Shown: piece by piece, positions 6,869 to 30,687 of the stretch
Position numbering within the stretch: position 1 is the stretch's first letter
How the letters are laid out: every line of letters starts with the position of its first letter
Assembly (NCBI GenBank): GCA_002793635.1
Contig: PFEM01000036.1
Span: forward strand, 1-31,501
From: Candidatus Shapirobacteria bacterium CG10_big_fil_rev_8_21_14_0_10_48_15
GTDB lineage: Bacteria > Patescibacteriota > Microgenomatia > PFEM01
Direction of reading: 5' to 3'
Length of the DNA stretch: 31,501 nucleotides
Translations under genes and position numbers: made by a program
The notes under the pieces: model-generated
Database searches by the model: none
Told to the model about the DNA's origin: nothing
What the model saw: only the letters and a program-made list of their open reading frames with translations

Positions 6869-6932
6869 AGAAAAAAGGCAAGACACAAAGCCCAACATCA
6901 GCCATCGCTGATATCAAGACCGGTCTTGCCTT
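6869..6932 (-). terminator. Long hairpin plus U-tract after the lipoprotein gene
   Basis: AAGGCAAGAC/GTCTTGCCTT 10-bp stem (6875-6884/6923-6932), inner ATCAGC/GCTGAT stem, T-run on the minus strand. Confidence 0.6.
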
Positions 6933-6953
6933 AGTGGCGCTCCGAACAACGGG

Positions 6954-7364
6954 TTAAAGGGGAGTCACCGTGGTTGCTGGAGCCGCTGTTGGCGACGGTG
7001 GAAGCGACTGGTTAGGCAATTGCCACCAAGCCAAATGAACCGTAACATCACCGTTAGCCGCCTTTATTACTTCTCCCTCTGCTCGGGCGTTGCTCCTAGC
7101 AAAACCCCTGTTTTTGATCAGCGTAATCTCGGTAGTGAAGGTCACTACAAAGTTCCCGCGATCAAGCAGAAAAGAGTGGGTCACCCCGTCCTGGGTAACC
7201 ACGGCTAATTCCGCACCCAAAGGGATCTCGCCCTCCTGAACCACCTGCAAAAGGAAAAGCCTGGGACACGCCTTCTCAACGATTCGCGTTACCTCGACGA
7301 CTTTTGGCTGGCAACCAGCCAACCAAACGGCGAGCAGCGCCACTGCGAACAACCAACGCTTCAC
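6954..7364 (-). CDS. Predicted lipoprotein, unknown function
   Basis: GTG start with SD GGAGG 8 nt upstream; signal peptide MKRWLFAVALLAVWLAG-C (lipobox LAGC); VVEVTRIVEK; Pro/Thr/Ala-rich C-terminus. Confidence 0.8.
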   Translation of the reverse strand: MKRWLFAVALLAVWLAGCQPKVVEVTRIVEKACPRLFLLQVVQEGEIPLGAELAVVTQDGVTHSFLLDRGNFVVTFTTEITLIKNRGFARSNARAEGEVIKAANGDVTVHLAWWQLPNQSLPPSPTAAPATTVTPL

Positions 7365-7405
7365 TGCAGTCTCCTCCCCGTCAAATTAACGAGCCACTAA
7401 ACCCT

Positions 7406-7433
7406 ATAATATCAAAACTGCTCCAGAAGTCAA
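7406..7433 (-). promoter_or_regulatory. Candidate promoter of the lipoprotein gene
   Basis: TTGACT-N16-TATTAT with TG extension, immediately after the helicase-nuclease stop. Confidence 0.45.
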
Positions 7434-7435
7434 CT

Positions 7436-10312
7436 TTATCGCCACGCTTCGCAGATCAATTTGAAGTCGCAAAAGCGGCACCAAATCCCCGGGTTAGGCT
7501 TAAAGTCGCTGTGATTAATTTGCTCAGCAATTTCAATAATCGCTTGTTTGTCTTTTTCTAATTGAGCGGCCGTCCGTTGCGTCGACTTCTTCTCGCCGGT
7601 TTGCAAAAAGTAAAAACTCAAAATGACGTCCTCCGGCGGCTGGTTGTAAATTCCCTGATCGGTAACGGCTAAGGCGTAGATCGTCATCTGCAGACTGCGG
7701 TCAACTCGCTTTTGCTCCCAGGCCCGACCAGTTTTATAATCAATAATTTCCAATTTGCCACCCTGACGGTCAACCCGATCCAAACGACCCCCCACCTTCA
7801 GATCCGCCGCGACCCTAATGGCAAACCCCTGTTCCAAAGCCAACGGCAAATTTTGCGGGTCATATTCTTGCTGGTAAAATTTCTTCAGCATTTTTGCTCC
7901 CCGATTGCGCGTCTTGCGCTCGTGATCGGCGTTCGTAAGGCCGGCCGTAGACCAATTTTTGGCAAACAACACCAGCAAATCCTGCTCGGTCGGCTGGCTA
8001 CCCTGTTTGGCTTGCTGATAAAAATCCCGCAACGTGTTGTGCATGGTCGTCCCAAAAGTGAGCGTTGCCGACGGCAGAGTCGGAATCCGTTGCCAATAGC
8101 GATAACGGTACTGCAGCGGGCAGGTGGCAAAAACGTCGATCTGGGAAAAAGAAAGAAAATTAACTGCCGGCTGATCACTGACGACTAATGATTGTTTTTC
8201 TTCCTGGGGTTTTTGATAATCGAAAAAAGTTAATTGTTGGCTTTGACCTTGAATTTGCTTCTGGCTAATGATTTTTTCTCCCAAAGTTTCAGCAACAAAA
8301 GGAGAGAGCTTGATTTTGCGCCGGCCCTCACCGTAATAATCAGCGGCGGTTAGCCAAAGCCGGTTTCGGGCACGGGTCAACCCCACATAAAACAACCGCC
8401 GTTCTTCCTGCAAATGATAATCACCTTCCGGCAGAATCTCTTTAATCAGCTCATCAGGAATAGGGATTTGTTCCTGCCGTTCCCTGGTAGGAAAACGACC
8501 ACTAACTAAATTAACCAAAAAAACCACCGGAAATTCCAAACCCTTGGCAGAATGAATGGTCAACAGATTAACTTTATTTTCCGCTACCCAGTCAGTCGTA
8601 CCGGCCAATGGCGATTCGCCTCTTTCCATCGCCAGACTAATCCAGGCCACCGTTGCCTGAACTGACGCGTCTTCATGAGCTGCCTCGTAGGACTTCAGCC
8701 GGTCAAACAGTTTGGCAATGTTTTGCGCCTGCTTTTCCTGGGCCACCGTTTTATAATCTGTCAATTGCTCCAATAAACCCGAATCCTGCAAAAAATAATA
8801 AAGAATCTGACCGGCCGTTTCTTTGACCAGTAAATCCAAATGCCGGTGGACCATCTGCACAAATTTTTTAATTTTTTCTCTAGCTTCCTGATTCAAAAAA
8901 ACTTGGTCCGCTTGTTCACAGGCTTCAAAAAAAGCCATGTTTTGGCGCCGGGCGAAGTTACTGATCGCGGCCAGATCGCGGCCGGAAAGACCAAAAACGC
9001 CCATGGACAGCACCCGATACACTGCTGGCCCGTCCTCAAAATTATCCAGGAGTTTCAGATAAGCGATCAGGTCTTTGACCTCCGGCTGGCGAAACAATTG
9101 GCCCGGCCCTAAAAACTGGTAGGGAATCCCCGCCCGCGACAGCGCCCGGGTAAAAGCCTCAGCATGATTATTGGCCCGAACTAAAAGGGCAATATCCTGA
9201 TACTGATACTTTTTTTTGGTCAAGCCGCTAATTTTTTTGGCCACCGCCTCCGCTTCGTCTTCCAACCGACCAGTCAAAATCAACTTAATCGGCTGGCCAA
9301 CCACCTGACGGGCTGAAACCAATTTTTTATTAATCTTTTCCTTAACTTCCAAACGATCCGGATTATTGTGCTGAATCAGCTGGTAAGCTCGATCCAAAAT
9401 TTCTTGGGTGGAGCGATAGTTTTGCGTCAGGGTGATTAATTTAGCTTTGGGAAAATTACGACGAAACTGGATGACATTGGCAGTAGCTGCTCCTCTCCAA
9501 CGATAAATTGCCTGGTCATCATCCGCCACAACTGTTAAGTTGGCCTGTTTGCCCGCCAGAAGCCGGACCAGCTCATTTTGGGCGATGTTGGTATCTTGAA
9601 ACTCGTCGATCAGCAAGTATTTAAACTTCTGTTGATATTGCCGCAAAATATTAGGTCTGGTGCGAAACAGTTGCAAAACCCGAGTAATCAGATCGCCAAA
9701 GTCCATGACATCCTTTTGCGTTTTTAATTCCTCATAGGTTTGGTAAGCGGTCGCTAATTCCAGATATTTCTTTTGGTTATCAGTTCCTAGTTGTAAGCTA
9801 TTGGCCTTTACCCAGTGAACATATTCGCTGGGCTGGATGTCTTCATCTTTCAGTCGGGAGAAATGCTGCAACAGGCCCTCAACAAATTGGGTCGGATTGC
9901 CAAGTGGCCGGTAATAACCAAGCTTGAATTTAAACAAATGATTGATCAAAAATTGGGTGGTTTCTGCGCCGCCCATCAGCTGGTAATTGGCGTTGAGGCC
10001 AATTTGCAGGGCTTCTTGACGCAAAACCCGATCGCAAAAAGAGTGAAAGGTGCTAATCCACATGTCCGTATAGCCGTAAGGCATCGCCAAATCGACCCGC
10101 TCCTCCATTTCCCCGGCGGCTTTATCCGTAAAAGTGAGTGCCAAAATTTCGGCTGGCTTGAGTTTTTTGCTGACAATCAGGTATTTAATTCTTTCGGTGA
10201 TGACCGTGGTTTTACCGGTACCGGCGCCGGCAATCACCAGTAACGGTCCCTGACCATAACGCACCGCCGCCCGCTGCTGCGGATTGAGCTTTTTTAATTG
10301 GTTTTTATTCAT
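7436..10312 (-). CDS. UvrD-type helicase fused to a C-terminal PD-(D/E)XK nuclease with four Cys (AdnA/AdnB/AddA-like)
   Basis: AGAGTGKT, TFTDKAA, STFHSF, IDEFQDTN, TIHSAKGLEF, EERRLFYVGLTRA; C-terminal FSQIDVFATCPLQY, GRLDRVD, IIDYKTG, CRFCDFKLIC. Confidence 0.92.
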   Translation of the reverse strand: MNKNQLKKLNPQQRAAVRYGQGPLLVIAGAGTGKTTVITERIKYLIVSKKLKPAEILALTFTDKAAGEMEERVDLAMPYGYTDMWISTFHSFCDRVLRQEALQIGLNANYQLMGGAETTQFLINHLFKFKLGYYRPLGNPTQFVEGLLQHFSRLKDEDIQPSEYVHWVKANSLQLGTDNQKKYLELATAYQTYEELKTQKDVMDFGDLITRVLQLFRTRPNILRQYQQKFKYLLIDEFQDTNIAQNELVRLLAGKQANLTVVADDDQAIYRWRGAATANVIQFRRNFPKAKLITLTQNYRSTQEILDRAYQLIQHNNPDRLEVKEKINKKLVSARQVVGQPIKLILTGRLEDEAEAVAKKISGLTKKKYQYQDIALLVRANNHAEAFTRALSRAGIPYQFLGPGQLFRQPEVKDLIAYLKLLDNFEDGPAVYRVLSMGVFGLSGRDLAAISNFARRQNMAFFEACEQADQVFLNQEAREKIKKFVQMVHRHLDLLVKETAGQILYYFLQDSGLLEQLTDYKTVAQEKQAQNIAKLFDRLKSYEAAHEDASVQATVAWISLAMERGESPLAGTTDWVAENKVNLLTIHSAKGLEFPVVFLVNLVSGRFPTRERQEQIPIPDELIKEILPEGDYHLQEERRLFYVGLTRARNRLWLTAADYYGEGRRKIKLSPFVAETLGEKIISQKQIQGQSQQLTFFDYQKPQEEKQSLVVSDQPAVNFLSFSQIDVFATCPLQYRYRYWQRIPTLPSATLTFGTTMHNTLRDFYQQAKQGSQPTEQDLLVLFAKNWSTAGLTNADHERKTRNRGAKMLKKFYQQEYDPQNLPLALEQGFAIRVAADLKVGGRLDRVDRQGGKLEIIDYKTGRAWEQKRVDRSLQMTIYALAVTDQGIYNQPPEDVILSFYFLQTGEKKSTQRTAAQLEKDKQAIIEIAEQINHSDFKPNPGIWCRFCDFKLICEAWR
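8164..8194 (-). repeat. Degenerate 7-bp tandem repeat in the helicase-nuclease linker
   Basis: Plus strand CTGCCGG CTGATCA CTGACGA CTAATGA TTG; encodes QSLVVSDQPA. Confidence 0.6.
9776..9803 (+). repeat. Degenerate 7-bp tandem repeat in the helicase domain
   Basis: GTTATCA GTTCCTA GTTGTAA GCTATTG; the minus strand encodes ANSLQLGTDNQ. Confidence 0.6.
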
Positions 10313-11333
10313 GAAGGACTTTCCCGTCTTGCTTGGCCGGGGTCAGGGTTTGGACGGAAGTCAATTTTTGCCCCATCAGGGTAAATTCCTGATTGACATT
10401 GGCCATTTGGTTGTAGGAATTAGTGACGTGTCTACCCAAGACGCCCAGCGTGCCGGCCAGCTTTTGATAATCCTTTTGAATCGCCCGTAATAGCGAAAAA
10501 ACTTGACGCGATTGCTGCTCAATTTCTTTACCTTCAAAAGAAAGCATAATCACCTGTAAGTTGGCATACAACGTGTTGGGAGAAACCGGATAAACCCGCT
10601 TTTGGCGAGCATATTCCGTCAGCGGGAGATCATTAACCGCTTCATAGTAAATTGGTTCCGAAGGAATGTACATCAGGGCAAAATCCATCGTGCCCTCCTC
10701 AGGCAAAATATATTTGGCCGCAATATCATCAATATGCTTTTTAACATCCCGCGAGAAATCACGGTGAGCTGCTTTGCGCTCTTCTTCCGACTCGGCTGCC
10801 ATCATTTTTTGAAAATTTTCCGCCGGAAATTTGGAGTCAATCGGCAAAATGCCGGCATCCGTTTTGATCGCCGCGTCTACTTTGGCACCACTTTTAAAAG
10901 CGTATTGGAGAAAAAAACTGTTTTTGGGAAACATTTGCGAAATCAAATCCTTCAGCACTTGCTCCCCAATATTGCCCCGCAACTTGGGACTGCGCAGATA
11001 GTCTTGCAGTTGCTTCATGGACAAAGAAAGTTCCGTAAATTTCCCGGCTTCACGCTGGACTTGAGCCATCAGTCGGGCCGCATTATCCAAACGCTGATTA
11101 AGCTCTTGGTTACTTTTTTGCAAAGTGTCGTTGAGGTTTTTGTTACCGCTGCTTAGGGCCTGGTTTAACGTCTTGGTCGTGTTTTCCAAAGAGGTCTGCA
11201 TGGACTTGAGCCACGCGGTCAGGGTGTCATCCGGCTTTTGCTGGGCCAGCTTATTCAGCCGACGGTTAAGAAAATAAACGGCGGCGGCCACCACCACCAC
11301 CAGCAAAACGGCAATCAAATAAGGCTCGTTCAT
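10305..11333 (-). CDS. rmuC: DNA recombination protein RmuC; probable start at 11333 (MNEPY)
   Basis: N-terminal TM and coiled coil; RGNIGEQVL, IDSKFP, FALMYIPSEPIY, VYPVSPNTL. Extended -10 TGtTAGAAT (11344-11352) lies 10 nt before this ATG. Confidence 0.9.
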   Translation of the reverse strand: MNEPYLIAVLLVVVVAAAVYFLNRRLNKLAQQKPDDTLTAWLKSMQTSLENTTKTLNQALSSGNKNLNDTLQKSNQELNQRLDNAARLMAQVQREAGKFTELSLSMKQLQDYLRSPKLRGNIGEQVLKDLISQMFPKNSFFLQYAFKSGAKVDAAIKTDAGILPIDSKFPAENFQKMMAAESEEERKAAHRDFSRDVKKHIDDIAAKYILPEEGTMDFALMYIPSEPIYYEAVNDLPLTEYARQKRVYPVSPNTLYANLQVIMLSFEGKEIEQQSRQVFSLLRAIQKDYQKLAGTLGVLGRHVTNSYNQMANVNQEFTLMGQKLTSVQTLTPAKQDGKVLHE

Positions 11334-11374
11334 CGCGTCTTTAATTCTAACAAAGGCTGGGTTAAAATCAAAGC

Positions 11375-11704
11375 ATGCCGCAACGCCGCAAAAACTTTCT
11401 TCCCACGCTAATTTTAGCCATTTCATTTTGGGGAGTGGGGGGGTGGCTGGTTTGGTCACAACCGCCCAACAGTCATTTTTGGATTGGCTTGTTTTTGCTG
11501 ATGCTTTTTTTCGCCTTGTTTTTAACGGCGGCGCTCATTTTTAACCACTCTGGCCGGGGATTATTGCTGGCTTTATTTACCGTCAGCGCGCTTTTGCTGC
11601 GCCTTTTTCAAATCGGCCACCCGCTTAATTTGGCCATACTGGCGGCGATTTTTATTATTCTGGGCATTGCCTTGGCGAAAACCCCACCAAAAGCAAGCCG
11701 CTAG
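11375..11704 (+). CDS. Small 4-TM membrane protein
   Basis: Four hydrophobic segments with a basic N-terminus; TAAAAT 6 nt before the ATG. Confidence 0.75.
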   Translation: MPQRRKNFLPTLILAISFWGVGGWLVWSQPPNSHFWIGLFLLMLFFALFLTAALIFNHSGRGLLLALFTVSALLLRLFQIGHPLNLAILAAIFIILGIALAKTPPKASR

Positions 11705-14677
11705 AACCAAAAAGCCCAGATATTCCAACCCTTGCGGCCAGAAAAAAATCCAAGGCCGTTGGCCCTCATTGTTCAGCTCCCAACCATTGGCCCAATTATT
11801 AATCAGCACGTGTTTCAGCAATTTAGGCCCTCCGTCTTCCCAACCAAGGGCCAGCCAACCAGAGTCAAAACTTTGATCAAAAAACAAGCGCTTGTTTTTT
11901 TGATCAATGGGCGCTAGCCACTGATAGTCAACAGGAAAAATTTTGACCGCTTTCAGTTGGTTAACCGACGGGACTTGCCCAATTGAATAATTGCTAAGAT
12001 TCAAATCAAAACCTTTTTCGCCTGTTGACTGAGGTGGAATTAAAAAAAGCTGCGTTTTAAAATCAGCCCCCTCGTGTAATTTAATGTCCAAATCACAGCG
12101 TCTTGTCTGATAATTGGTTAGGCAAAAACGAATCGGTAAACCCTGGATATTCTTTGATTCCACTAACAATGCATAACCCTGATTATGTAGCAATTGGGGA
12201 TAGTAAAAGGTATCGCAAAGGTTACCGTTTTGCGAAAAATATTCAATATATTGATTATCATCAGCGCCGGTAATTTTTCTGAAGTACTTTTGCGGGGCAA
12301 TCCCACAGCTGGTATCTTGACGCTGAAGCACCGGCAAATTACCCAAGCTCCCTTCCTGCAAAAGACTTATTGCCTCTTCATTACTGTTTTGTTTATAAAA
12401 GGTCAAGCTGAGTTGGCGAACTTTAAGTTCTGTGTAAGCGTTGGCCACTAAGGAAAATTGCAGCTGATAATTTGCCGCACCACCAACTATTTCAAAAAAT
12501 GGATAATCATATCTCTGCGCTGCACACCGCCCCAAACGATTATCGAATAGGCAAAAGTTAGCATCGCCCTCTTTTAATAAATCAACTTTTAACCAAAGAT
12601 TTGCCTCGTTAAGGGGCAGGGGCAGCTGGAAAAGCGGTAATTTGACACAGGCATTTGCTGCTTGGGCCGAAAGTTTAAACCCCCTACCAGCATCAAGCAA
12701 ATCATAAGCAAAACTTTGGTCTAGCAAAATCGGGCCGCAATTCTCCGGAAAAAGAAAAAACTTCTCAAAATCTACCTTGATGACCTTTTCCGGTCGAGTT
12801 AATTGTAAAGCTGTTTTTGCCGGCAGCTGGCTAACGACCTTGTCGTAATTAGCCCCGACAATTTCCTCCGTAGACTGCAGATTATAAATCTTGTTATTTT
12901 GTAAATTACCTACCTTATAAATACTGATCTTGGGACCAAATTTTTTGGCCAGTTGAAACTCGTTTTGCTGACTCAAAATAACTTTAGTCTCCTCGAAAAG
13001 CAAAACTTTTTGGTCGTGGTTGGGGTCAAAAATATTTTCGTCCAGCAAGATCCAGTTAATATTATATTTTTGCACAAAAGACGAAAGCAAAGACGAATTT
13101 TGAGAATAAAGCGCGTAACTTAGCTCTCGATAGGCTTCCTGGTTATATTGGGACCAACGGTCAAACTCTCGATCCAAAAGAGGTTGCTTAAGACCAAACC
13201 ACAAAAAACCAGCGCCCTGGTAGCCCCAACCATAATAATTCCAACCCCACAAATCAGGCATCGGCAACTTCAAAATGCGACCGGCGGTTTGCTGATCAAA
13301 CCAGGCAAACATTTCAAAATACTCATTGGGAATTTTAATTCTCATTTGCGGACTAACTAAATAACCAGCAAAAGCCGGCCGCATGTAAAAAATCAAACTG
13401 CCGGTAATTATCGCCGCTACCAACAACGAAATTATTTTCCTTTTGGCAAATAGAACTCTAACTGCCTGACCGAAAAAAATTGCCTCTACAAAAATCAACA
13501 AAATTGAAAATTTAGTAAAAGGAAAGCGCAAAATTTCTCTTGCAAGAGACCAACGGCCGATAAGCCAACTGTAGATTGGTGACAGCAGGGGGTTCAGAAT
13601 CATCATGAAGAAAAACAAAAAAATAAAGACCGGCAGCCAAGAGACTAACACTACCTCTTTTTTAAACAGCGCCGTTGCCAAACCGACCGCCACTAACAAA
13701 AAAAATAGGTATCCCAAAAAAGACACCTCGGGATTATTAAGGTGAACTTGCCATGCACGTAAAAGTGGTCCAAACCCAACTTCTGGTTGGTAAACTTGCC
13801 AATTAAACAGGAAGCTTTTAAATAACGCTACCTCTGCCAAGCCGCTGAATTCCTGTCCCTGAGCAATCGCCTCATCGGTAAAAAGCTGGTGAATTTTAGA
13901 AGCTTCCACTTCCCCACTGTGTCGGCAAACATAGTAAAGATTCGGCCCGAGCCAAAAAAAATTAGTTACCAAAATGGCAAAAAACAGCAAAAAAATTCTT
14001 TTCCGCAAAAAAATCTTTTGAGGGGAAAAAATCAAAAAGCCAGCCAGATACAAAACAACGACTACTAAATAAACATAAAAAAGGGTGGCGGTGTGCGCCA
14101 TTGGTGCTGCCAAAAAGCTAACCAACCCGAAAAGCAGTAGACAATTTTTCTTCCCTGTTTGGATGAATTGAGTCATTAGTAAAAATAACCAGCCTAGGGC
14201 GGCGTACTGGGTGGCAAACATTTCCAAAGGGACAACAAAATGTTGTACTGTCCCCAAATTAAGGAGGTAAAAAAGTGCTCCCAAAAAGGCTGGTATGTTT
14301 TGCCGCCAAGCAACTTCTCTTTCAAAAACAATTTTTTTAAGAAAGGAATAAACTCCCAGAGGGCCCAAAAGCAGACAAACAAAAAAATAAAAATAGCGCA
14401 AAAAGGAGACGGGCAAAAGTAAAGAAGCCAGAAATAAAAAAATCAGCCGCGGCAATTCCGCAGCATGGGCTTGAGAAGCCGTTGCTCCCAAACCTTGATG
14501 CTCTTGCCAAGCACCGCTGATCGCCCGCCCAAAACCTAAAGAAAAGCTAAACTCCGGGTGAAGTGTGTCCCAACCGGTAAGCCACGTCCCGGGGGAATAA
14601 TTCCGCACGCAAATAATAATGGCTATTAGGGCAATTAAAGCCGGCCAAAAACTTGCCTTTTTGAAAATTTTCCTCAT
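11573..14677 (-). CDS. Large GT-C-type membrane protein (AftD/YfhO-like) with a big extracellular domain
   Basis: GWDTLHP early loop, about 12 TMs, WGYQGAGFLWF, LLDREFDRW, C-terminal HVLINNWANGW plus TM. The family assignment is a recalled resemblance. Confidence 0.65.
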   Translation of the reverse strand: MRKIFKKASFWPALIALIAIIICVRNYSPGTWLTGWDTLHPEFSFSLGFGRAISGAWQEHQGLGATASQAHAAELPRLIFLFLASLLLPVSFLRYFYFFVCLLLGPLGVYSFLKKIVFEREVAWRQNIPAFLGALFYLLNLGTVQHFVVPLEMFATQYAALGWLFLLMTQFIQTGKKNCLLLFGLVSFLAAPMAHTATLFYVYLVVVVLYLAGFLIFSPQKIFLRKRIFLLFFAILVTNFFWLGPNLYYVCRHSGEVEASKIHQLFTDEAIAQGQEFSGLAEVALFKSFLFNWQVYQPEVGFGPLLRAWQVHLNNPEVSFLGYLFFLLVAVGLATALFKKEVVLVSWLPVFIFLFFFMMILNPLLSPIYSWLIGRWSLAREILRFPFTKFSILLIFVEAIFFGQAVRVLFAKRKIISLLVAAIITGSLIFYMRPAFAGYLVSPQMRIKIPNEYFEMFAWFDQQTAGRILKLPMPDLWGWNYYGWGYQGAGFLWFGLKQPLLDREFDRWSQYNQEAYRELSYALYSQNSSLLSSFVQKYNINWILLDENIFDPNHDQKVLLFEETKVILSQQNEFQLAKKFGPKISIYKVGNLQNNKIYNLQSTEEIVGANYDKVVSQLPAKTALQLTRPEKVIKVDFEKFFLFPENCGPILLDQSFAYDLLDAGRGFKLSAQAANACVKLPLFQLPLPLNEANLWLKVDLLKEGDANFCLFDNRLGRCAAQRYDYPFFEIVGGAANYQLQFSLVANAYTELKVRQLSLTFYKQNSNEEAISLLQEGSLGNLPVLQRQDTSCGIAPQKYFRKITGADDNQYIEYFSQNGNLCDTFYYPQLLHNQGYALLVESKNIQGLPIRFCLTNYQTRRCDLDIKLHEGADFKTQLFLIPPQSTGEKGFDLNLSNYSIGQVPSVNQLKAVKIFPVDYQWLAPIDQKNKRLFFDQSFDSGWLALGWEDGGPKLLKHVLINNWANGWELNNEGQRPWIFFWPQGLEYLGFLVLAACFWWGFRQGNAQNNKNRRQYGQIKRVADLKKAQQKRADGK

Positions 14678-14736
14678 AAAGTTGTTTCATTTTTTGATTG
14701 TCCCAAAACACAAATTTCTTTTTGTTTTAAGACAAT

Positions 14737-14750
14737 CAGGCATCATCAAA
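14737..14750. repeat. Left arm of a 14-bp inverted repeat
   Basis: CAGGCATCATCAAA is the exact reverse complement of 15964-15977. Confidence 0.7.
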
Positions 14751-14771
14751 GCAACTCCATTTTCTCTGGCG

Positions 14772-14800
14772 AGAAAAGAAGACAGCCAAGGGCTGTTTTT
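14772..14800. terminator. Short, possibly bidirectional intrinsic terminator
   Basis: ACAGCC-AAG-GGCTGT with T-rich tracts on both strands. Confidence 0.5.
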
Positions 14801-14811
14801 CCTGATTGCTT

Positions 14812-14877
14812 GGTCGAGAGACCGCCGTAATGTTTTCTGTTCTTCACTGAACAGCACATCCTCGGCGGTCCCCGACC
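14812..14877 (-). other. 66-nt nested hairpin 3' of the 324-aa gene
   Basis: GGUCGGGGACCGCCG/CGGCGGUCUCUCGACC outer stem, AUGU/ACAU middle and CUGUUC/GAACAG inner stems; a G-U wobble favours the minus strand. Confidence 0.65.
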
Positions 14878-14891
14878 TTGACGTTTCGCAA

Positions 14892-15866
14892 CTACTCCGC
14901 GTTGGTCTTGACCAACGTCCATTTGGATAGGTCAGTAGCTTCGATCCTAAACTTCTGGTAGTAGTGAGTGCTCGCGTCGAAAAGCACAACATAAGTCGTT
15001 GAGCAACCCAACGCGCCACAATTTGTGGAGGATTGCGCCGCATCTTTCACTTGCGAACTGGCCTGCAGTTGCTGCAAAAACCAATTGCTAGACACGTAGG
15101 CGCCTGGTTGGAGCTTCGACCAGATCGCATGGCCAGCCCTAAAGCCGGTAACCTTCGCGGTCATATTCAGGTCCGTATCTACCAGACCATCGTCGATACG
15201 CCCGCGGATCACCACCAGATAGTTAGTCCCTGACATGGGCTCCATGGCCAGTAAGACATCGCCCAACTGGATGTTACCCTCTCCCATGGAGAAGTAAGCA
15301 AAACCACCTTCGGGAATGTTGGCCGAGTGTGTCATCTCAACGCTGGGAATGACCCACGCGGCACTGGCGTCCAGAATCCGGCCCGGTTCGGCGATCAGCC
15401 ACGCAGACTCTGGGTTGATGACCTTAACGGCCTTGACGGGCGTCCGAAAGAGCGAGCCAATCATCGGCAGCCCTACACCCACAGTCATGACCCCAGTGGT
15501 CGTCACCGGCGTCGTGGCTACCATGGATACGGAGCTAAACCCCATCAGCCGTGCCACTTCGGTCGCCACCACCTGGGCAACAGCGTCTTCAAATTGGGCT
15601 GTTGCGTCTGGCGTAGGCATTGGGGTAGCCGTTGGCGGGACCGGCGTCACCTCGACAACACGCGTGACTTCCTTCTCGACCTCAACAGCTTCCTTGGCCA
15701 CCCGTGTCACTTCGACCAGCTTCTCCTTGGTCACAACGACGGTTTGTTCGACGACCTTCTCCGGGATTGGCCTCGTCCAACCCGCAATGCCAACAGCAAC
15801 CAAAACCACCACGACGATGACAACAGCTCCCGAAACAAGCCACACAACCCACCTTGGAATATTCAT
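14892..15866 (-). CDS. Membrane-anchored secreted protein of unknown function with VEVTR repeats and a Pro/Thr linker
   Basis: SD AGGAGG; N-terminal TM; VVEQTVVVTKEKLVEVTRVAKEAVEVEKEVTRVVEVTPVPPTATPMPTP; C-terminal CGALGC pair. Confidence 0.85.
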   Translation of the reverse strand: MNIPRWVVWLVSGAVVIVVVVLVAVGIAGWTRPIPEKVVEQTVVVTKEKLVEVTRVAKEAVEVEKEVTRVVEVTPVPPTATPMPTPDATAQFEDAVAQVVATEVARLMGFSSVSMVATTPVTTTGVMTVGVGLPMIGSLFRTPVKAVKVINPESAWLIAEPGRILDASAAWVIPSVEMTHSANIPEGGFAYFSMGEGNIQLGDVLLAMEPMSGTNYLVVIRGRIDDGLVDTDLNMTAKVTGFRAGHAIWSKLQPGAYVSSNWFLQQLQASSQVKDAAQSSTNCGALGCSTTYVVLFDASTHYYQKFRIEATDLSKWTLVKTNAE

Positions 15867-15933
15867 GTTGCCTCCTGAATCGCAGTTAGACGTCTACCAA
15901 ACTATTCGGCAGATCGTCGGCGGGGAACGCTTT

Positions 15934-15957
15934 ATTATACTAAAGGAGAATTCTCCT
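15934..15957 (-). promoter_or_regulatory. -10 box TATAAT with a 14-bp perfect palindrome in the spacer
   Basis: ATTATA at 15934-15939 on plus; AGGAGAATTCTCCT at 15944-15957; -35 poor. Confidence 0.55.
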
Positions 15958-15963
15958 GTTATT

Positions 15964-15977
15964 TTTGATGATGCCTG
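15964..15977. repeat. Right arm of the 14-bp inverted repeat
   Basis: TTTGATGATGCCTG. Confidence 0.7.
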
Positions 15978-16810: not shown

Positions 16811-17572
16811 TCATCTCGCCACGGACAGGGCCAGCGGGACGGCAGTAATGATCAGCCGCTGCCAAGTGGTGCCTGGCGGCCAACAGGTTTGCAAAACCAG
16901 CTTCTCCTGCTCAAAATCAATTTTCAAAAAATCCGTTTCGCTGGCCGCCACCACTTGCTTAGCCGTCACTCGGTAAACATAAAGGTCCTGATGGTAAAAC
17001 AGGTTGACTTGATCACCCAATTCCAGCTCTTTTAAAAGGTAAAAAGAAGCTTCAAAATCAGCCACCCGCCAGAGATAATCAATCGAGTGGCCAAAAAGAT
17101 AAATCGTCCCGCCCTGACCGGGGAAAAAACTGCCGGCAGCATGAGCCACCCCACTTTTCAACGCCCCCTGGTAAGCTTTTTTATCCCACACGGAAACATC
17201 AGCGGCAATGGCGCTATTAAGGTTAATTTTGGGAACCACGATGCTAAATTGTGAATCAACGGGCTGGAACCATTCCAAGTCAAGCTGCCGCCGGGAGTCG
17301 GCAAACTCGGCCTGCAACGAATCAACGGCTGGTTTTGGCCGGGCAGCCAAATTCCTGGCCCACCCGCGCGTTTCCAAAATTAGCAAGGGCAATAAAAAAA
17401 ACAGCAAGCCGCCCGCCGATACCGTCAGCAAAAAATGGGCCAAAAACTTTGACCAGTTAAAGGCGGCTCGCTGGCTGATATGCCAGACCTTACTTTTTTC
17501 CAACGCGAGGGGTAAGCAAACTTCACCCGCAAGCGGAAAACCATCACGATAAATAATCACTTCTTTAATCAT
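16811..17572 (-). CDS. Sortase
   Basis: TM anchor; GVAHAAGS-FPGQGG-IYLFGHS, LQTCWPPGTTWQRL (His/Cys/Arg triad). Confidence 0.92.
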   Translation of the reverse strand: MIKEVIIYRDGFPLAGEVCLPLALEKSKVWHISQRAAFNWSKFLAHFLLTVSAGGLLFFLLPLLILETRGWARNLAARPKPAVDSLQAEFADSRRQLDLEWFQPVDSQFSIVVPKINLNSAIAADVSVWDKKAYQGALKSGVAHAAGSFFPGQGGTIYLFGHSIDYLWRVADFEASFYLLKELELGDQVNLFYHQDLYVYRVTAKQVVAASETDFLKIDFEQEKLVLQTCWPPGTTWQRLIITAVPLALSVAR

Positions 17573-23788: not shown

Positions 23789-23808
23789 TATGATAAAATT
23801 GGCGGGCA

Positions 23809-25226: not shown

Positions 25227-26089
25227 GCCTGCTTGCCCCCCTGATTTTTTCAGGGAACTTGCTGATCCCCCAAAAGCTTCTCCTTAGCCTCTGGGCAATT
25301 TTCATTTTTACCATTCTCACCTCGTCGGTTTATCTGATCAACGATCTGGCCGATTTGGAACAAGACAAAATGCATCCTTTCAAAAAAAACCGGCCCCTCG
25401 CCTCGGGCAAGCTACCGATACCGATCGCCGTTTTTGCCATGATTATCAGCTTGGTCACCGCCTTGTACTTAGCCTATCTTCACAGTTTCTTTTTCTTTTT
25501 AAGCCTGATCGCTTATCTGGCCCTGCAACTTATCTACACTTTTTATTTAAAAAATATTATTATCCTCGACGTGCTCGCGATTGCGAGCGGTTTTGTGGTG
25601 CGCGTCTATGCCGGCGCTTTTGCCATCAACGTCCACATGGAAGTCTGGTTTCTGCTCTGCGTCATCTCTTTGGCCCTGTTTTTGGCTACCGGCAAACGGC
25701 GGGCGGAACTGGCCATGCTCAACGAACAAGTCGCGCCAAAATATCGCAAAACCTTAAGTTTTTATACGCCAGACTTGCTGGATGCCTACCTGGCCATGTT
25801 TGCCAACTCGGCTTGGCTGGCTTACGCCTTGTTTACTTTTTTTGCGCCACCGGTGCCCACCCAGCATTTAAAATTGCTTACTTTTTTGCCGATGACGCTG
25901 GCCGGCATCAGCAAACTGCTCATGCTGACTGTTCCCATCGTCATTTTTGGCATCATGCGCTACATGATGGTCGTTTATCAGGGAAGCCGGGCCGAAGTGC
26001 CGGAAAGAGTCCTGCTGTCCGACAAAGCCCTGCTGGGGTCAGTGAGCCTTTGGGGAATCCTAGTCGTGATGATTATCTACGGTTTTTAG
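25163..26089 (+). CDS. UbiA-family decaprenyl-phosphate phosphoribosyltransferase-like protein; probable GTG start at 25163
   Basis: RPRQALKN, YLINDLADLEQDKMHPFKKNRPLASG, YTFYLKN, GKRRAE; SD GGAGG (25149-25153) 9 nt before an in-frame GTG. Confidence 0.85.
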   Translation: MVQLLFQLVRSIRPRQALKNLSLLAPLIFSGNLLIPQKLLLSLWAIFIFTILTSSVYLINDLADLEQDKMHPFKKNRPLASGKLPIPIAVFAMIISLVTALYLAYLHSFFFFLSLIAYLALQLIYTFYLKNIIILDVLAIASGFVVRVYAGAFAINVHMEVWFLLCVISLALFLATGKRRAELAMLNEQVAPKYRKTLSFYTPDLLDAYLAMFANSAWLAYALFTFFAPPVPTQHLKLLTFLPMTLAGISKLLMLTVPIVIFGIMRYMMVVYQGSRAEVPERVLLSDKALLGSVSLWGILVVMIIYGF

Positions 26090-26979
26090 TCCTTAACCAG
26101 TTCGCTGTAACTCCCGGAAATCCAGCCTTCTTGGTCAGTGGCATACTCAATTTTGTGCCAGCCATTTTTTGTTTCGTCCAAATAGGGGAAGGTTTGGCCA
26201 GGTTCTACCCGCGCTACTTCGGCAGCATCGGTCGAGGCTTCTTGCCTGACCCGCAACCAGCCAGTCGGCGTGTCTTTGACGCGCACATAGGGTTTTACCG
26301 CCTCTGTTGCCTCGGCCGTTTCTGCTTTCGTCATCTCTGCCTTCACCTCTGCTTCAATTTGAGCGCTTTCACTGGCCTCCTGAATCCCTTCAATTTCCCT
26401 AGGCAGTTGGACATCGAGGACCAGCTTATAGCCAACAATCGTTTGGGCCGTCACCTGACGCTCTTGGTAACCAGGAGAACTGATCACCACTTCATAGCTG
26501 CCCGGGGGCTGGTCTTCAATCACCAGCGGCGCAAACCCTCTTGGTTCCCCATCAATTTTGACCACTGCCTGATCGGGCAAGGAAACGACGGCCAAAAAAG
26601 CCTGGTCGCGGCTGTTGATTTTTTCCAAAGTCAGCACTTCCCCCCCCGATTCGGCATCATTGGGGCCCAAAAAGCGGCTGATGGCGACCCTCACTCCCGA
26701 GGACAAATTAACTTTACCTTCCCAACTGGTCAGGCCATTTTCGGTTGACTCCGGCACTAGCCTGACGCTGTGCTCGCCAGACTCAAGCTTGTCGTTAACC
26801 AGTCCGGCCGCACCCGTAACCCCTATCTGGGTACCGTCAACAAAAACCACCGCACTGGGAATCGTGGTAACTTGAAGCGCCGCCGGCGAGTGGCGATCCA
26901 AAATTTTTGTTTTAAAAACCAGCCCCACCAAAGATAACCCCAACACTACGACCGCCACCATTAGCCAGCTTTTTTTCAT
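26086..26979 (-). CDS. PEGA-domain protein with a C-terminal bacterial SH3 domain; probable start 26979 (MKKSW)
   Basis: N-terminal TM; LQVTTIPSAVVFVDG and VSLPDQAVVKIDG...PGSYEVVISSPGY (PEGA); TPTGWLRVR...GWHKI...EGWISG (SH3b). Confidence 0.85.
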   Translation of the reverse strand: MKKSWLMVAVVVLGLSLVGLVFKTKILDRHSPAALQVTTIPSAVVFVDGTQIGVTGAAGLVNDKLESGEHSVRLVPESTENGLTSWEGKVNLSSGVRVAISRFLGPNDAESGGEVLTLEKINSRDQAFLAVVSLPDQAVVKIDGEPRGFAPLVIEDQPPGSYEVVISSPGYQERQVTAQTIVGYKLVLDVQLPREIEGIQEASESAQIEAEVKAEMTKAETAEATEAVKPYVRVKDTPTGWLRVRQEASTDAAEVARVEPGQTFPYLDETKNGWHKIEYATDQEGWISGSYSELVKD

Positions 26980-27002
26980 CGCAAGGCGAAGAATAGCACA
27001 AA

Positions 27003-27031
27003 TTGCCACTCCAAGGCAAATTTGGTAAAAT
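27003..27031 (+). promoter_or_regulatory. Promoter of tRNA-Cys
   Basis: TTGCCA-N17-TAAAAT with TG extension, 8 nt before the tRNA 5' end. Confidence 0.7.
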
Positions 27032-27039
27032 GCAGTTGC

Positions 27040-27110
27040 GGTCAGGTGTCGGAGCGGCTACGAAGCGGTCTGCAAAACCGCGCACAGGGGTTCAACTCCC
27101 CTCCTGACCT
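27040..27110 (+). tRNA. trnC: tRNA-Cys(GCA), CCA not encoded
   Basis: Acceptor GGTCAGG/CCTGACC plus T73; anticodon arm GCGGT-CTGCAAA-ACCGC; T arm AGGGG-TTCAACT-CCCCT. Confidence 0.95.
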
Positions 27111-27111
27111 C

Positions 27112-27340
27112 TTAGGGCTTAATAATTTCCGTTTCCTTTTTTCTTTTAAAGAACAAAAAATCGTCGCCAAGCGACTCAAAATTAATGATCAAAAACTAGC
27201 CGATCTCGTTAAGAAAAAACTAAAAATTATCAAAATCAACCAACCAAAGGCACTTTAAAAAAGAAAAAATTAAAAGAGACTTCAGCATCATGATCTTCAC
27301 GCCTGCTCAATTCCTCCAATATTTAAGAAGTCAAAACTAA
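27112..27340 (+). pseudogene. Probable decayed PIN-domain toxin fragment
   Basis: No start codon; two frames give ...IVAKRLKINDQKLADLVKKKLKIIKINQ and TNQRHFKKEKIKRDFSIMIFTPAQFLQYLRSQN*, resembling PIN middle and C-terminal segments. Confidence 0.5.
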
Positions 27341-27353
27341 GCCTTGCGAAAAG

Positions 27354-27382
27354 TTGACTTTTGGGGCTTTTTTTGCTAAGAT
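27354..27382 (+). promoter_or_regulatory. Promoter upstream of the M23 gene
   Basis: TTGACT-N17-TAAGAT with TG extension. Confidence 0.65.
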
Positions 27383-27394
27383 TAGTGCCAGTTG

Positions 27395-27425
27395 AATCCT
27401 CTTGAACATCCAGGAGGATTTTTTT
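27395..27425 (+). terminator. Terminator-like hairpin in the M23 leader
   Basis: AATCCTCTTG/CAGGAGGATT 10-bp stem (one G-U) followed by a T-run. Confidence 0.55.
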
Positions 27426-27446
27426 GTGGCCTAAATAAGCCACCTT

Positions 27447-28148
27447 ATGCAATTCAGCCTAACTTTTGGCAAACAGCAATTGGCGGTCAGTTTGAGCCGC
27501 AAACGCGGTCGTCCCCGCAACCCTTCTTGTTACCGCCTGCATCAATTGGTTGCTTACCTGAAACGGCTCGTGACTGATAAACATCTGGCCGGTCATCCGG
27601 CTAGCCGGGTACTGCGTCGGGTGTTTGAAAACGGTAAAATCAAAAAAGCCCTTGGCTTGAACTTGGCGGGGTTAATCTTGTTAACTGGCTTGGCGACCCC
27701 GACCGAATCGATTCTCAAAAATAATAGTGAGACGGAAGAAATTGTTTCTCTGACCGTCAATGCCCAAGAAGTGGAAACGGTTACCCAACACACTGTTCGC
27801 CTCCCTTTGGACAGTTTTGTCATCACTCAAGGTTATAGCTTCTTCCACCGTGGGGTGGACCTAAAAGAAGTGACCGGCGCGCCGATTTACCCGATCATGG
27901 ACGGCACGGTGGAGGCGGTTTTTGACCTTCACTTTGGTTACGGCAAGCACCTGATTATCAATCACGGCTCGGGCCGCAAAAGCCTTTACGCCCACTTAAG
28001 CAAAATTATTGCCCAAAAAGACCAAGCAGTGGACAAAAATACCGTCATTGGGCTGGTCGGTTCAACCGGACTGTCTACCGGCTCTCACTTACACTTGGAA
28101 ATCTGGGAAGACGGCCGTCCGCTCAACCCCCTGGTGGTGCTGCAATAA
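27447..28148 (+). CDS. M23-family metallopeptidase with an N-terminal extension and TM
   Basis: HRGVD (HxxxD), GYGKHLII-H, YAHL, STGLSTGSHLHLEI. Confidence 0.92.
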   Translation: MQFSLTFGKQQLAVSLSRKRGRPRNPSCYRLHQLVAYLKRLVTDKHLAGHPASRVLRRVFENGKIKKALGLNLAGLILLTGLATPTESILKNNSETEEIVSLTVNAQEVETVTQHTVRLPLDSFVITQGYSFFHRGVDLKEVTGAPIYPIMDGTVEAVFDLHFGYGKHLIINHGSGRKSLYAHLSKIIAQKDQAVDKNTVIGLVGSTGLSTGSHLHLEIWEDGRPLNPLVVLQ

Positions 28149-28157
28149 CTGACCATC

Positions 28158-28184
28158 AAAAAACCCGCTTGCGCGGAGTTCTTA
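28158..28184. terminator. Terminator between convergent M23 and groEL
   Basis: A6-flanked AAC-CCGC-TTGC-GCGG-A-GTT hairpin. Confidence 0.5.
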
Positions 28185-28212
28185 GTTAAAAGTTATAAGC
28201 TACCAGTTATCA
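28178..28212 (+). repeat. Intergenic degenerate 7-bp tandem repeat
   Basis: GTTCTTA GTTAAAA GTTATAA GCTACCA GTTATCA. Confidence 0.65.
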
Positions 28213-28218
28213 GCCCGC

Positions 28219-29844
28219 CTACATTCCCATCCCGCCCGGCATTCCCCCCCCAGGCATTTGGTTTTTCTCTTCTTCAGGAATATCGGTGATGAGGCCCTCA
28301 GTCGTGAGAATCATGGTCGCGACGGAAACGGCGTTTTGCAACGCGGTCCGGGCCACTTTGGCCGGGTCAATAATGCCCGCTTTAATCATGTTGACATACT
28401 GACCAGCCAAAACATCAAAGCCCGTCCCCACCGCGGCTCTGCTAATATTGGCGACCACCACCCCGCCGTCTTCACCGGCATTTTTAGCCAGCAGGCGCGT
28501 CGGCGATTCCAAAGCTTTTTTCACCAGTTGCATGCCCGTCAGCTCATCGCCACTGGCCATACCAAAGTCAATCGCTTTGGCGGCTACCAGCAGCGTCACC
28601 CCGCCACCCGGCACAATGCCTTCTTCGATTGCCGCTTTGGTCGCCGCCACCGCATCCTTAACCCGCTCCTGCTTCTCCTTCATTTCTATTTCTGAAGCAG
28701 CGCCCACTTCAATGACCGCCACCCCGCCGGACAGTTTGGCCAGCCTCTCTTCCAATTTTTCGCGATCAAATTCGGAAGTCGTCCGGCTCACTTCAGCCTT
28801 AATCTGGTTAACCCGGGCACTGATCTGACTCTTGCTACCCTTACCACCAACAATAAGCGTGTTTTCTTTGTCCGTCGTCACCCGGTCAGCCTGACCCAAG
28901 TCTTCCACCATCACGTCCTCCAGTTTACGGCCAGCGTCTTCAGAAATGACGGTGCCGCCGGTCAAAATCGCGATATCTCCCAGCATTTCCTTACGCCGAT
29001 CACCAAAACCGGGCGCCTCGACCGCCAAAACATTGAAAGTCCCCCGCAATTTGTTGACGACCAGCGTCGCCAAAGCCTCCCCCTCAACTTCATCGGCAAT
29101 AATCACCAAGTTTTTGGAAACTTTAACCAGCCTCTCTAAAAACGGCAGCAACTCTTGGATTGAAGAAATTTTTTTGTCCGTCAGCAGCAAATAAGCATTT
29201 TCAATCGACGCTTCCATCGTGTCGGAATCGGTGACAAAGTAAGGGGAAGAAAAACCCTTGTCAAACTCCATGCCTTCTTTGTAGTCAATCGTGATCTCCA
29301 AACCTTTACCCTCTTCAACGGTCACGACCCCGTTGGGACCAACCTTTTTAAGCGCCTCGGCGATCTTTGCCCCAATCAGTGAATTTTGGGCCGAAATGGT
29401 GGCTACTTGAGTGATCATCTCATGGCTATCCCTCACGGGCTTGGATTGCTTTTTAATCGAAGCGACCGTCTGCTCCGCTGCTTTTTCAATCCCTTTGTTT
29501 AAAATCATCGGGTTGGCCCCGGCGGCAATATTTTTGATACCCTCCTCGACAATCGCCTGCACCAAAATCGTCGCGGTGGTCGTGCCGTCACCGGTGGCGT
29601 CATTGGTCTTTTCCGCGGCTTCTTTGACCAATTGCGCCCCCATATTTTCAAACGGATCTTTCAGGTCAATTTCCTTGGCCACCGAAACCCCGTCATGCAC
29701 GACGGCCGGCGCCCCCCATTTTTTGTCCAGAGCAATGTTGCGGCCCTTAGGGCCTAGGGTGGTCCCCACGGCCTTAGCGACCGTGTCCACGCCAACTTTT
29801 AATTTTTCTCTGGCTTGTTCAGCGTAAATTAGTTGTTTCGCCAT
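28219..29844 (-). CDS. groEL: Chaperonin GroEL
   Basis: [35 protein letters not shown]-rich tail. Confidence 0.99.
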
Positions 29845-29845
29845 T

Positions 29846-30154
29846 TTATTGCGTCACTGCCAAAACGTCTTCAAATTTAACAAAAATATATTCTTGACCG
29901 GAAATACCCAGTTTAAATTCGTCGCCCCCCCACTTTTTGTAAATCACCACGTCCCCCAATTTAAACTCGGGCACAATTTGTTTACCCTTGTCAGTTGTTT
30001 GGGCTTTGCCCATGGCAATCACTTTCCCTTTTTGAGATTTTTCGTCGTGAGTATCCGGAAGGACTATCCCCGTGGCCGTTCTTTTTTCCATTTCCACTGG
30101 TTCGATCAGCGCATAGCCGGCCGTGGGTTTGATGTTTAGTTTAGTCGTCGCCAT
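29846..30154 (-). CDS. groES: Co-chaperonin GroES
   Basis: [37 protein letters not shown]; adjacent to groEL. Confidence 0.97.
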
Positions 30155-30168
30155 TATTTTGAAAAAAA

Positions 30169-30187
30169 ATTATCACTTGGTGATAAT
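30169..30187. promoter_or_regulatory. Candidate operator in the groES leader
   Basis: ATTATCAC-TTG-GTGATAAT dyad between the promoter and the start codon. Confidence 0.55.
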
Positions 30188-30194
30188 GATTGCT

Positions 30195-30223
30195 ATTATA
30201 AAAACTTGCTTGAAAAATGTCAA
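30195..30223 (-). promoter_or_regulatory. Consensus sigma70 promoter of groESL
   Basis: TTGACA-N17-TATAAT on the minus strand. Confidence 0.85.
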
Positions 30224-30238
30224 GGGTTAGATAGTACG

Positions 30239-30295
30239 TGGCTGCGCGCAGATGTGATTGTTGGTGACCCGTAGGTCTCACATTGCGCGCAGCCA
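30239..30295. other. 57-nt long hairpin 3' of the small Cys/His ORF
   Basis: TGGCTGCGCGCA-G-ATGTGA / TCACAT-TGCGCGCAGCCA (18 bp with one bulge); GACC-CGTA-GGTC hairpin inside the loop. Confidence 0.75.
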
Positions 30296-30327
30296 GTCTC
30301 CCGACGGCAGTTTAACTCACTGACAGA

Positions 30328-30510
30328 TTATTCGGTGCTCCCAGCCCTGTGTGACCCAGGAGGGCCGAATCTTTCAGCGCGTTCGCGCTGCCTCCTGGCG
30401 TGGCCGTTTTCCTTTGGACTTGGGTGCCGCTCGCACCACGCCTTATGACGACCAGCGGTTCCTCCGCACAGTGCACAAATATCCAGAACATGGATCTGGG
30501 CCGGTGCCAT
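30328..30510 (-). CDS. 60-aa putative zinc-binding small protein
   Basis: SD GAGGAGG 6 nt before the ATG; CALCGGTAGRHKAWCERH (CxxC-x5-H-x3-C-x2-H). Confidence 0.6.
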   Translation of the reverse strand: MAPAQIHVLDICALCGGTAGRHKAWCERHPSPKENGHARRQRERAERFGPPGSHRAGSTE

Positions 30511-30545
30511 TGGGACCCTCCTCTTCGAAAATCAGTGTCGGGAGA

Positions 30546-30573
30546 ACAAAAAAGACAAGCTACCCTGTCTTTT
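30546..30573 (-). terminator. Terminator-like hairpin in the leader of the 60-aa ORF
   Basis: Minus strand AAAAGACAGG-GUAG-CUUGUCUUUU, then UU. Confidence 0.5.
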
Positions 30574-30658
30574 CAGCCCTCCCGCCCGACTCGCCTCGCG
30601 ACTCGAAGCGGGCAGACTTGTCTTACCAGCAATTATTAATGAACTTACTATGGGATAA

Positions 30659-30687
30659 ATTTTAACCATTTATTCCCATTTTGTCAA
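30659..30687 (-). promoter_or_regulatory. Sigma70 promoter driving the leader and the 60-aa ORF
   Basis: TTGACA-N17-TAAAAT on the minus strand. Confidence 0.75.

Follow-up and report, generated by a model that had tools for sequence, protein, structure and literature searches.

The stretch of DNA analyzed here, hereafter the window, is 31,501 nucleotides (nt) long and constitutes the entire contig PFEM01000036.1 (C1) of the assembly of Candidatus Shapirobacteria bacterium CG10_big_fil_rev_8_21_14_0_10_48_15 (G000; 572,848 bases, 40 contigs, 86% complete). It contains three short modules, A, B and C, in which a single gene, or in the case of C a putative gene, is combined with a promoter-like site, a strong Shine-Dalgarno (SD) sequence and a stable hairpin downstream of the stop codon. 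The modules lie at 7, 15 and 30 kb, spaced 8–15 kb apart with conserved genes between them, and all three were found on the minus strand where the original prediction had placed them. That prediction regarded the modules as ORFan genes inserted between housekeeping genes, and proposed a cassette-like route of acquisition in which the 3' hairpin is a recombination substrate or an RNA processing signal. Each of the elements that it described, i.e., a promoter-like site of its own, a strong SD and a hairpin of 57–66 nt after the stop codon, is indeed present in each unit:

7406–7433, minus strand: promoter-like site of module A, TTGACT-16-TATTAT with a TG, directly after the stop codon of the gene for an AddA-like helicase
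7373–7377, minus strand: SD of module A, GGAGG, 8 nt before the GTG start codon
6954–7364, minus strand: gene A, 136 amino acids (aa), an ORFan with a lipoprotein-type N-terminus (LAGC)
6868–6932, minus strand: hairpin A (6875–6932) and U-tract (6868–6874), in the form of an intrinsic terminator
15964–15977, minus strand: upstream arm of a 14-bp inverted repeat (CAGGCATCATCAAA), in the short space between the motif GCACTTTAA and the −35 hexamer
15934–15962, minus strand: promoter-like site of module B, ATAACA-17-TATAAT
15871–15876, minus strand: SD of module B, AGGAGG; orthologues have GGAGGTG at the same place
14892–15866, minus strand: gene B, 324 aa, with an N-terminal membrane anchor, a variable linker and a conserved C-terminal beta domain of ~185 aa
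14812–14877, minus strand: hairpin B, 66 nt, three-tiered, the strongest gene-3' hairpin of the genome
14772–14796, minus strand: second, small hairpin, ACAGCC-CTT-GGCTGT, with a U-rich tail, downstream of hairpin B
14737–14750, minus strand: downstream arm of the 14-bp inverted repeat
30659–30687, minus strand: promoter-like site of module C, TTGACA-17-TAAAAT
30540–30617, minus strand: leader of module C, with a GC-rich hairpin (30584–30617) followed by a terminator-like hairpin and U-run (30540–30583), both upstream of the SD
30517–30523, minus strand: SD of module C, GAGGAGG, 6 nt before the ATG
30328–30510, minus strand: open reading frame (ORF) C, 60 aa, Cys/His-rich, an ORFan, putatively coding
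30239–30295, minus strand: hairpin C, 57 nt, ending 16 nt before the −35 hexamer of the groES promoter

A rare combination of signals

The shared architecture is real, and it is rare in this genome. Pairing between SD and anti-SD amounts to −11.0 kcal/mol for A, −10.3 kcal/mol for B and −12.5 kcal/mol for C, and values of −9 kcal/mol or below are reached by 3.6% of the genes of the genome, compared with 1.5% of intragenic controls. At −6 kcal/mol there is no genome-wide enrichment (9.4% of 477 genes versus 9.8% of intragenic controls), and the earlier remark that most backbone genes lack an SD thus applies to the genome as a whole. Throughout the genome, TAnAAT hexamers peak 7–10 nt before the ATG (37 of 279 genes), which is indicative of leaderless mRNAs, and many genes accordingly appear to be leaderless. 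Within the window, such hexamers are seen upstream of 3019, 4874, 18035, 19476, 17642 and 16811–17572. Ribosomal-protein genes inside their operon use SD sequences, and the SD is therefore a native signal of this genome.

Hairpins A, B and C have folding energies of −32.1, −41.9 and −37.2 kcal/mol, respectively, with z-scores between −6.9 and −8.8 relative to dinucleotide shuffles. Among the 199 gene ends with non-coding DNA downstream, hairpin B ranks first, C second and A third, whereas gene ends in general show no enrichment of hairpins (median −15.1 kcal/mol, versus −17.1 kcal/mol for coding-sequence controls). The association of a strong SD with a strong hairpin is significant when thresholds set after inspection of the data are applied (3/12 versus 3/182 genes; Fisher p = 0.003). 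The three units stand out because most genes have no SD, many are seemingly leaderless and few carry a strong 3' hairpin. In all three cases the sense strand folds more stably than the antisense strand, by 10.8 (A), 6.0 (B) and 1.7 (C) kcal/mol, owing to G-U pairs; hairpin A, for example, consists of an outer stem and a 12-bp inner stem with four G-U pairs, and reaches −32.1 kcal/mol as sense but −21.3 kcal/mol as antisense. A U-tract directly after the large hairpin is present only in A.

No sequence is common to the three hairpins, each of which occurs once in the 573-kb assembly, and modules A, B and C have no family match in Rfam. The original prediction had suggested building a covariance model from the three hairpins; this was rejected, as the MAFFT alignment contained neither a common sequence nor a common structure, and an energy-based hairpin scan of the whole genome took its place.

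The three genes are at the 96th, 99th and 100th percentiles of gene GC content in the genome. The elevated GC noticed originally is thus confirmed, but it is no sign of foreign origin, since it is predicted by amino-acid composition together with the codon usage of the genome (observed/expected 0.550/0.551, 0.565/0.539 and 0.607/0.636): the proteins are rich in Ala, Gly, Pro, Val and Arg, and the genome's own codon usage does the rest. Orthologues of B likewise exceed the GC content of their own loci everywhere.

Histories of the three genes

Gene A is a true lineage-specific ORFan at a variable junction. Neither a word search of 5.8 billion proteins nor an exhaustive phmmer search returned a homologue outside its own species cluster, bar one weak match, a prealbumin-like beta-sandwich repeat of a giant surface protein. 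The order UvrD, FemAB, AddA, RmuC is kept across the order to which the bacterium belongs; between FemAB and AddA, six relatives have no gene at all, and six further ones have unrelated genes, a toxin-antitoxin pair among them. Synonymous codon usage in gene A is atypical for its length (z = −3.5), and one allele has an in-frame 3-nt deletion at 7282, consistent with a coding gene. The motif (V/E)EVTR(I/V)(V/A), located just after the membrane anchor, is found in genes A and B only among the 620 ORFs of the genome and is missing from B orthologues elsewhere; homology between A and B is not claimed, the similarity being too short (BLASTP E = 0.068).

ORF C is a lineage-specific ORFan ORF, putatively coding, that is also situated at a variable junction. 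No homologue was found outside its own species cluster, the ESM Atlas gave no usable match, the structural model is of low confidence, and synonymous codon usage has a z-score of −2.5. The ORF was not found upstream of groES in 13 relatives, all of which conserve the groES promoter and an operator-like palindrome. In the window, this promoter (TTGACA-17-TATAAT, 30195–30223) is followed by a palindrome of the ATCGTCACTTGAAAGTGATAAT type within 30155–30223; the palindrome is conserved across the order (L034–L046) and is not a CIRCE (controlling inverted repeat of chaperone expression) element. On its other side, C adjoins a Phd/PIN toxin-antitoxin pair, which in some strains (L089, L095) is replaced by an IS1595-type transposase from about 30751 outward. 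Related insertion sequence (IS) ends are located at contig ends of the assembly (end of C20, start of C24).

The ORFan status originally assigned to all three genes thus holds for A and C, and it does not hold for B. Gene B is an old, positionally fixed family with 79 homologues at 41–59% identity, and it is no insert between housekeeping genes but a member of a conserved sortase/GT-C cluster. In all readable loci (12 DNA loci and four gene tables), the B homologue is directly upstream of the orthologue of the GT-C-like gene, and it is usually preceded by a sortase gene and a gene for a DUF11 or small protein. Gene B is therefore syntenic across the lineage, an outcome that the original prediction itself had named as a reason to abandon the cassette proposal. 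Genes A and C are young, confined to the lineage, and were added at junctions that vary between relatives. The family is uncharacterised and restricted to Patescibacteria. Across 21 sequences, its C-terminal domain has 47 invariant columns and displays the motifs NxPEGGF, RGRIDD, GHA and TNCGAxGC, with CGAxGC invariant. The AlphaFold model of B has a mean pLDDT (predicted local distance difference test score) of 75.5; a structure search gave no match in the PDB at E = 0.001, and the matches in the AlphaFold DB are all uncharacterised proteins. Two alleles of the Pro/Thr-rich linker (15482–15621) are present in the population, with nine substitutions and an in-frame 3-nt deletion, and no variants were seen inside hairpin A or hairpin B in the population contigs. 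The small hairpin at 14772–14796, with its U-rich tail, is likely the actual terminator of unit B. Just before the start codon of the GT-C-like gene, which has no SD, lies a further, AT-rich hairpin (14678–14736; TTCACCTTAGTAAATAA...TTAAGATGAGAGT-ATG) that recurs in several lineages (L006, L009, L014, L109).

The layout of module B recurs with the gene. An SD-led orthologue is present in 11 of 13 orthologous loci, all SDs but one being of the GGAGGTG type and located 5–7 nt before the ATG. In eight of these 11 loci the strongest downstream hairpin begins within +7 to +17 of the stop codon and belongs to the top 1–6% of control windows of the same locus; from lineage to lineage, the hairpins show no relation in sequence. 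Two orthologues, the most distant ones, look leaderless, do not adjoin a GT-C gene, and have neither SD nor hairpin. In three relatives of the same order, the slot between the DUF11 and GT-C genes is occupied by membrane-anchored genes of 232–306 aa, for which homology to B is not claimed (hhalign E = 0.09); each is followed by a strong hairpin (3/3), with a U-tract in two of the three. A fourth unit of the same kind was identified elsewhere in the genome:

C18:2901–3464: gene for a protein of 187 aa with a signal peptide (secreted), with AGGAGG as SD and a hairpin of −32 kcal/mol

Orthologues of this gene in three relatives all have AGGAGG (3/3); at the 3' end there is a hairpin of −31.7 kcal/mol at +10 in one of them, a pair of shorter GC-rich hairpins in another and a weaker hairpin in the remaining one. 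For two independent families, B and the C18 gene, the layout is thus inherited with the gene, which together with the greater stability of the sense strand argues for a function at the RNA level. Of the two roles originally offered for the hairpin, that of an RNA signal hence fits the data, as the structure recurs at orthologous positions with unrelated sequences; the other, that of a recombination substrate, finds no support in core sites, an IntI integrase, an array or a common sequence.

Unit B is in addition bracketed by the perfect 14-bp inverted repeat, a length not reached in any of 300 shuffles; its downstream arm comes shortly after the small terminator. In orthologous loci, the 8–13 nt that immediately follow the stop codon can pair with a site 70–110 nt upstream of the ATG; the downstream arm is at exactly +1 after the stop codon in L006, L109, L013, L014, L009 and L003, and the repeat measures 13 bp in L006, 12 bp in L109 and L013, 9 bp in L014 and 8 bp in L009 and L003, with sequences that vary between lineages. 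An anchored repeat test was significant for L006, L109, L013 and L014, borderline for L003 (0.049) and not significant for L009 (0.068). A GCACWTTAA motif precedes the upstream site in four loci (L006, L009, L013, L109), as is the case in the window, and the bracketing repeat is absent in six of 12 loci. Whole-flank comparison with RNAduplex was discarded, its global duplexes being no better than those of shuffles, and the exact and anchored inverted-repeat tests were used instead. No inverted orientation of unit B was present in ten assembled contigs and the contigs of four runs, in which rare variants are dropped, and the B cluster holds no recombinase gene. It is conceivable, although we regard it as rather doubtful, that B and its orthologues are enclosed by a lineage-varying complementary pair that constitutes a conserved long-range element around a whole protein gene of Candidate Phyla Radiation bacteria. 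If so, the pair could form a stalk between the 5' and 3' parts of the mRNA that is processed by RNase III or protects the ends, in the manner of rRNA precursors. Another possibility is that it delimits a DNA unit of the size of one gene that can be inverted or exchanged, in keeping with the non-homologous genes that relatives have in the same slot.

Interpretation and alternatives

We consider it probable that the three modules are independent, leadered, SD-dependent and self-contained transcription units, the hairpins of which act on RNA and do not mark mobile cassettes. Each unit would comprise its own promoter, a transcribed leader, a strong SD, one short ORF and a very stable stem-loop after the stop codon. 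The stem-loop would end or pause transcription and shield the next gene from read-through, i.e., the GT-C gene after B and the regulated groES promoter after C, and by blocking 3'-to-5' exonucleases it would prolong the life of the short mRNA. In evolution, such a layout would travel with the gene and would not be the mark of a route of arrival. From this arrangement we infer that the hairpin serves termination or stabilization, and that the layout exists because the proteins, mostly of the envelope, are expressed strongly or autonomously.

Several observations weigh against such an interpretation. Module C may not be a protein gene: two same-strand and two antisense frames are open, gene callers differ in the frame they choose, and the frames are not told apart by their codon usage. 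In codon usage, A and C show little similarity to ribosomal-protein genes (3rd and 7th percentiles) and B is unremarkable (25th percentile), so that high expression is not backed by codon bias. Hairpin C has no U-tract, and hairpin B, which is followed by a separate small terminator, is a larger structure than termination would require. Rho and RNase R/II were not found in the 86%-complete genome. The sequence is present in 24 runs, each of them a DNA run.

Integron-like or other site-specific cassette recombination, with the hairpin acting as an attC-like folded single-stranded site, is largely refuted, and we hold it to be almost certainly wrong. The hairpins do fall within the size range of attC sites (57–66 nt) and lie at the 3' end of a single ORF, hairpin A has one internal GTTGGGC, and A and C are lineage-specific; however, there are no RYYYAAC/GTTRRRY core pairs at the hairpin ends, hairpins B and C lack any core site, and the window as a whole has four RYYYAAC...GTTRRRY pairs compared with a shuffle mean of 5.7, i.e., fewer than expected by chance. 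The window contains no integrase, as had been stated, and IntI was not found in the 86%-complete genome; its two tyrosine recombinases are XerC/D-like and score 250 and 165 bits as XerD but 128 and 61 bits with TIGR02249, far below the integron-integrase cut-off of 265. Furthermore, the modules have their own promoters and are 8–15 kb apart without forming an array, and B is fixed in position across orders. In all fetched same-species contigs, A, B and C occupy the same positions and have one orientation. Empty-site or inverted forms were encountered neither in the 10–12 assembled contigs per module nor in the contigs of four further groundwater runs, which span A and B without a junction at their borders, although rare variants do not show up in contigs. 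In none of the tests applied here did the cassette reading hold up. That three unrelated, ordinary, long terminators were merely grouped by eye would agree with the lack of a common sequence or structural alignment and with the differing tails, yet this, too, is very unlikely, given that the hairpins are the three strongest of the 199 gene-end hairpins, that all of them follow SD-led genes on one 31-kb contig, and that the layout recurs with orthologues.

A reading that partly overlaps with self-contained transcription units is that the architecture marks imports, namely A, C and perhaps the B/GT-C segment, acquired by ordinary illegitimate or homologous recombination; the modules would look alike only because a gene that enters a leaderless genome with few operons has to carry along a promoter, an SD and a terminator. 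We regard this as possible but unlikely. It would account for the absence of homologues of A and C outside their own species cluster, their atypical synonymous codon usage, the slot next to AddA that is empty or filled with unrelated genes in relatives, the absence of C upstream of groES in the 13 relatives, and the toxin-antitoxin pair, or in some strains the IS1595-type transposase, next to C. With respect to B, a profile search found the family in only one of 23 genomes of the order, and a phylogeny of the N-terminal region of GT-C leaves the window copy unresolved and does not group it with the copy of the same-family relative; lateral replacement of B, with or without the GT-C gene, is therefore possible. 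Approximately unbiased (AU) tests, however, reject neither grouping of the window GT-C with same-order copies lacking B (p = 0.28) nor grouping with B-linked copies (p = 0.10 and 0.26). The architecture of B and of the C18 gene is kept across distant lineages and is thus no import signature in itself, the high GC does not represent compositional foreignness, and no donor was found for A or C. The relatives compared are only 57–66% identical in AddA, so that a loss or a gain at any point of long branches may explain their empty sites equally well. It has also to be considered whether the hairpins and the inverted repeat of B are RNase III processing sites that free a stable monocistronic mRNA from a longer transcript, in analogy to the flanking stems of rRNA precursors, which we deem improbable. 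RNase III is encoded in the genome, the main hairpin of B is separate from and additional to the small terminator, and the flanks of B are complementary in several lineages with differing sequences, with an arm at +1 in six loci. On the other hand, the upstream arm in the window lies just upstream of the predicted −35 hexamer and would enter a transcript only if transcription of the DUF11 gene read through, 12–14 bp over about 1 kb make a weak long-range helix, and half of the 12 loci have no such repeat. The SD-dependent, self-contained transcription unit is therefore the interpretation that we retain for the three modules.

Genomic setting and known systems

According to Pfam scans, the gene order in the window is DUF2298, LytR, UvrD and two FemAB genes; module A, an AddA-like helicase-nuclease, RmuC and a GT-C-like membrane protein of 1034 aa; module B, a DUF11-LPXTG protein and a sortase; a Trp-repressor-like gene, MetRS, several glycosyltransferases, UbiA and an SH3/PEGA protein; tRNA-Cys, an M23 peptidase, GroEL and GroES; and finally module C and the Phd/PIN toxin-antitoxin pair. 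The source names of homologues of window genes are Microgenomates, Woesebacteria, Gottesmanbacteria and Patescibacteria. A 76-aa ORF at 6586–6851 (minus strand), without a Pfam match, extends in antisense orientation into the second FemAB gene at its 3' end, and the ATG of this ORF follows 5 nt after a near-consensus promoter, TTGCAA-18-TATAAT with a TG. In two relatives the AddA-like gene (G001:C28:1746–5696 and G023:C1:72414–76367) is a single open frame of about 1320–1370 aa, with ~350 additional residues near residue 270 of the window protein that possibly represent an intein or an inserted domain. Two families of repeated palindromes occur in the genome, one with the sequence CACCCCTGGGG...CCCCAGGGGTG and the other a longer element with arms GCAGCACGAG...CGAGTGCTAA within a CCCGC...GCGGG stem. 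A first set of repeated palindromes is located at C20:13095–13169, C30:1616–1694, C25:27261–27340 and C27:7363–7432, and a second set at C32:9829–9909, C18:3705–3777 and C20:19471–19549. Hairpins A, B and C belong to neither family.

Our analysis removes a tempting but unsupported claim, that of a new cassette-acquisition route in an uncultured bacterium with a reduced genome. The genome appears instead to use two modes of expression, i.e., a leaderless or SD-less majority with weak 3' structure and a small leadered, SD-driven and hairpin-ended set; the latter appears to encode mostly envelope or secreted proteins and to conserve its layout with the gene over long evolutionary distances. None of the papers searched mentions leaderless transcripts, SD sequences and Patescibacteria together. 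This two-mode picture can guide the calling of gene starts and operons in genomes of the Candidate Phyla Radiation, and gene B, as a conserved and uncharacterised partner of the sortase/GT-C surface cluster, is a candidate for study.

Among known systems, integron cassettes with attC sites share with the modules a single short ORF followed by an imperfect palindrome of about 60 nt, but the modules differ from them in having no R/L core sites, IntI or array, in having their own promoters, and in the synteny of B across orders. Repetitive extragenic palindromic (REP) or bacterial interspersed mosaic element (BIME)-type sequences and miniature inverted-repeat transposable elements (MITEs) are likewise stable extragenic palindromes at gene ends, whereas hairpins A, B and C are each single-copy in the genome. 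Unit B resembles an invertible DNA segment in being flanked by inverted repeats, and differs in the one orientation seen and in the absence of a recombinase from the cluster. Its neighbourhood, in the order sortase, LPXTG/DUF11 protein, B and large GT-C-like membrane protein, is reminiscent of the sortase-linked surface-protein clusters of Gram-positive-type envelopes, although B lacks an LPXTG signal of its own, uses an N-terminal helix as its anchor and is without a match among solved structures. Compared with intrinsic terminators and mRNA-stabilizing 3' stem-loops, the stems in the modules are two to three times the usual length (57–66 nt, nested), the large hairpins B and C have no U-tract, and the genome shows no enrichment of terminators at gene ends; the similarities lie in a GC-rich stem-loop a few nucleotides after the stop codon, in the greater stability of the sense strand, and in the U-tracts that follow hairpin A, the small second hairpin of B and several of the orthologous hairpins.

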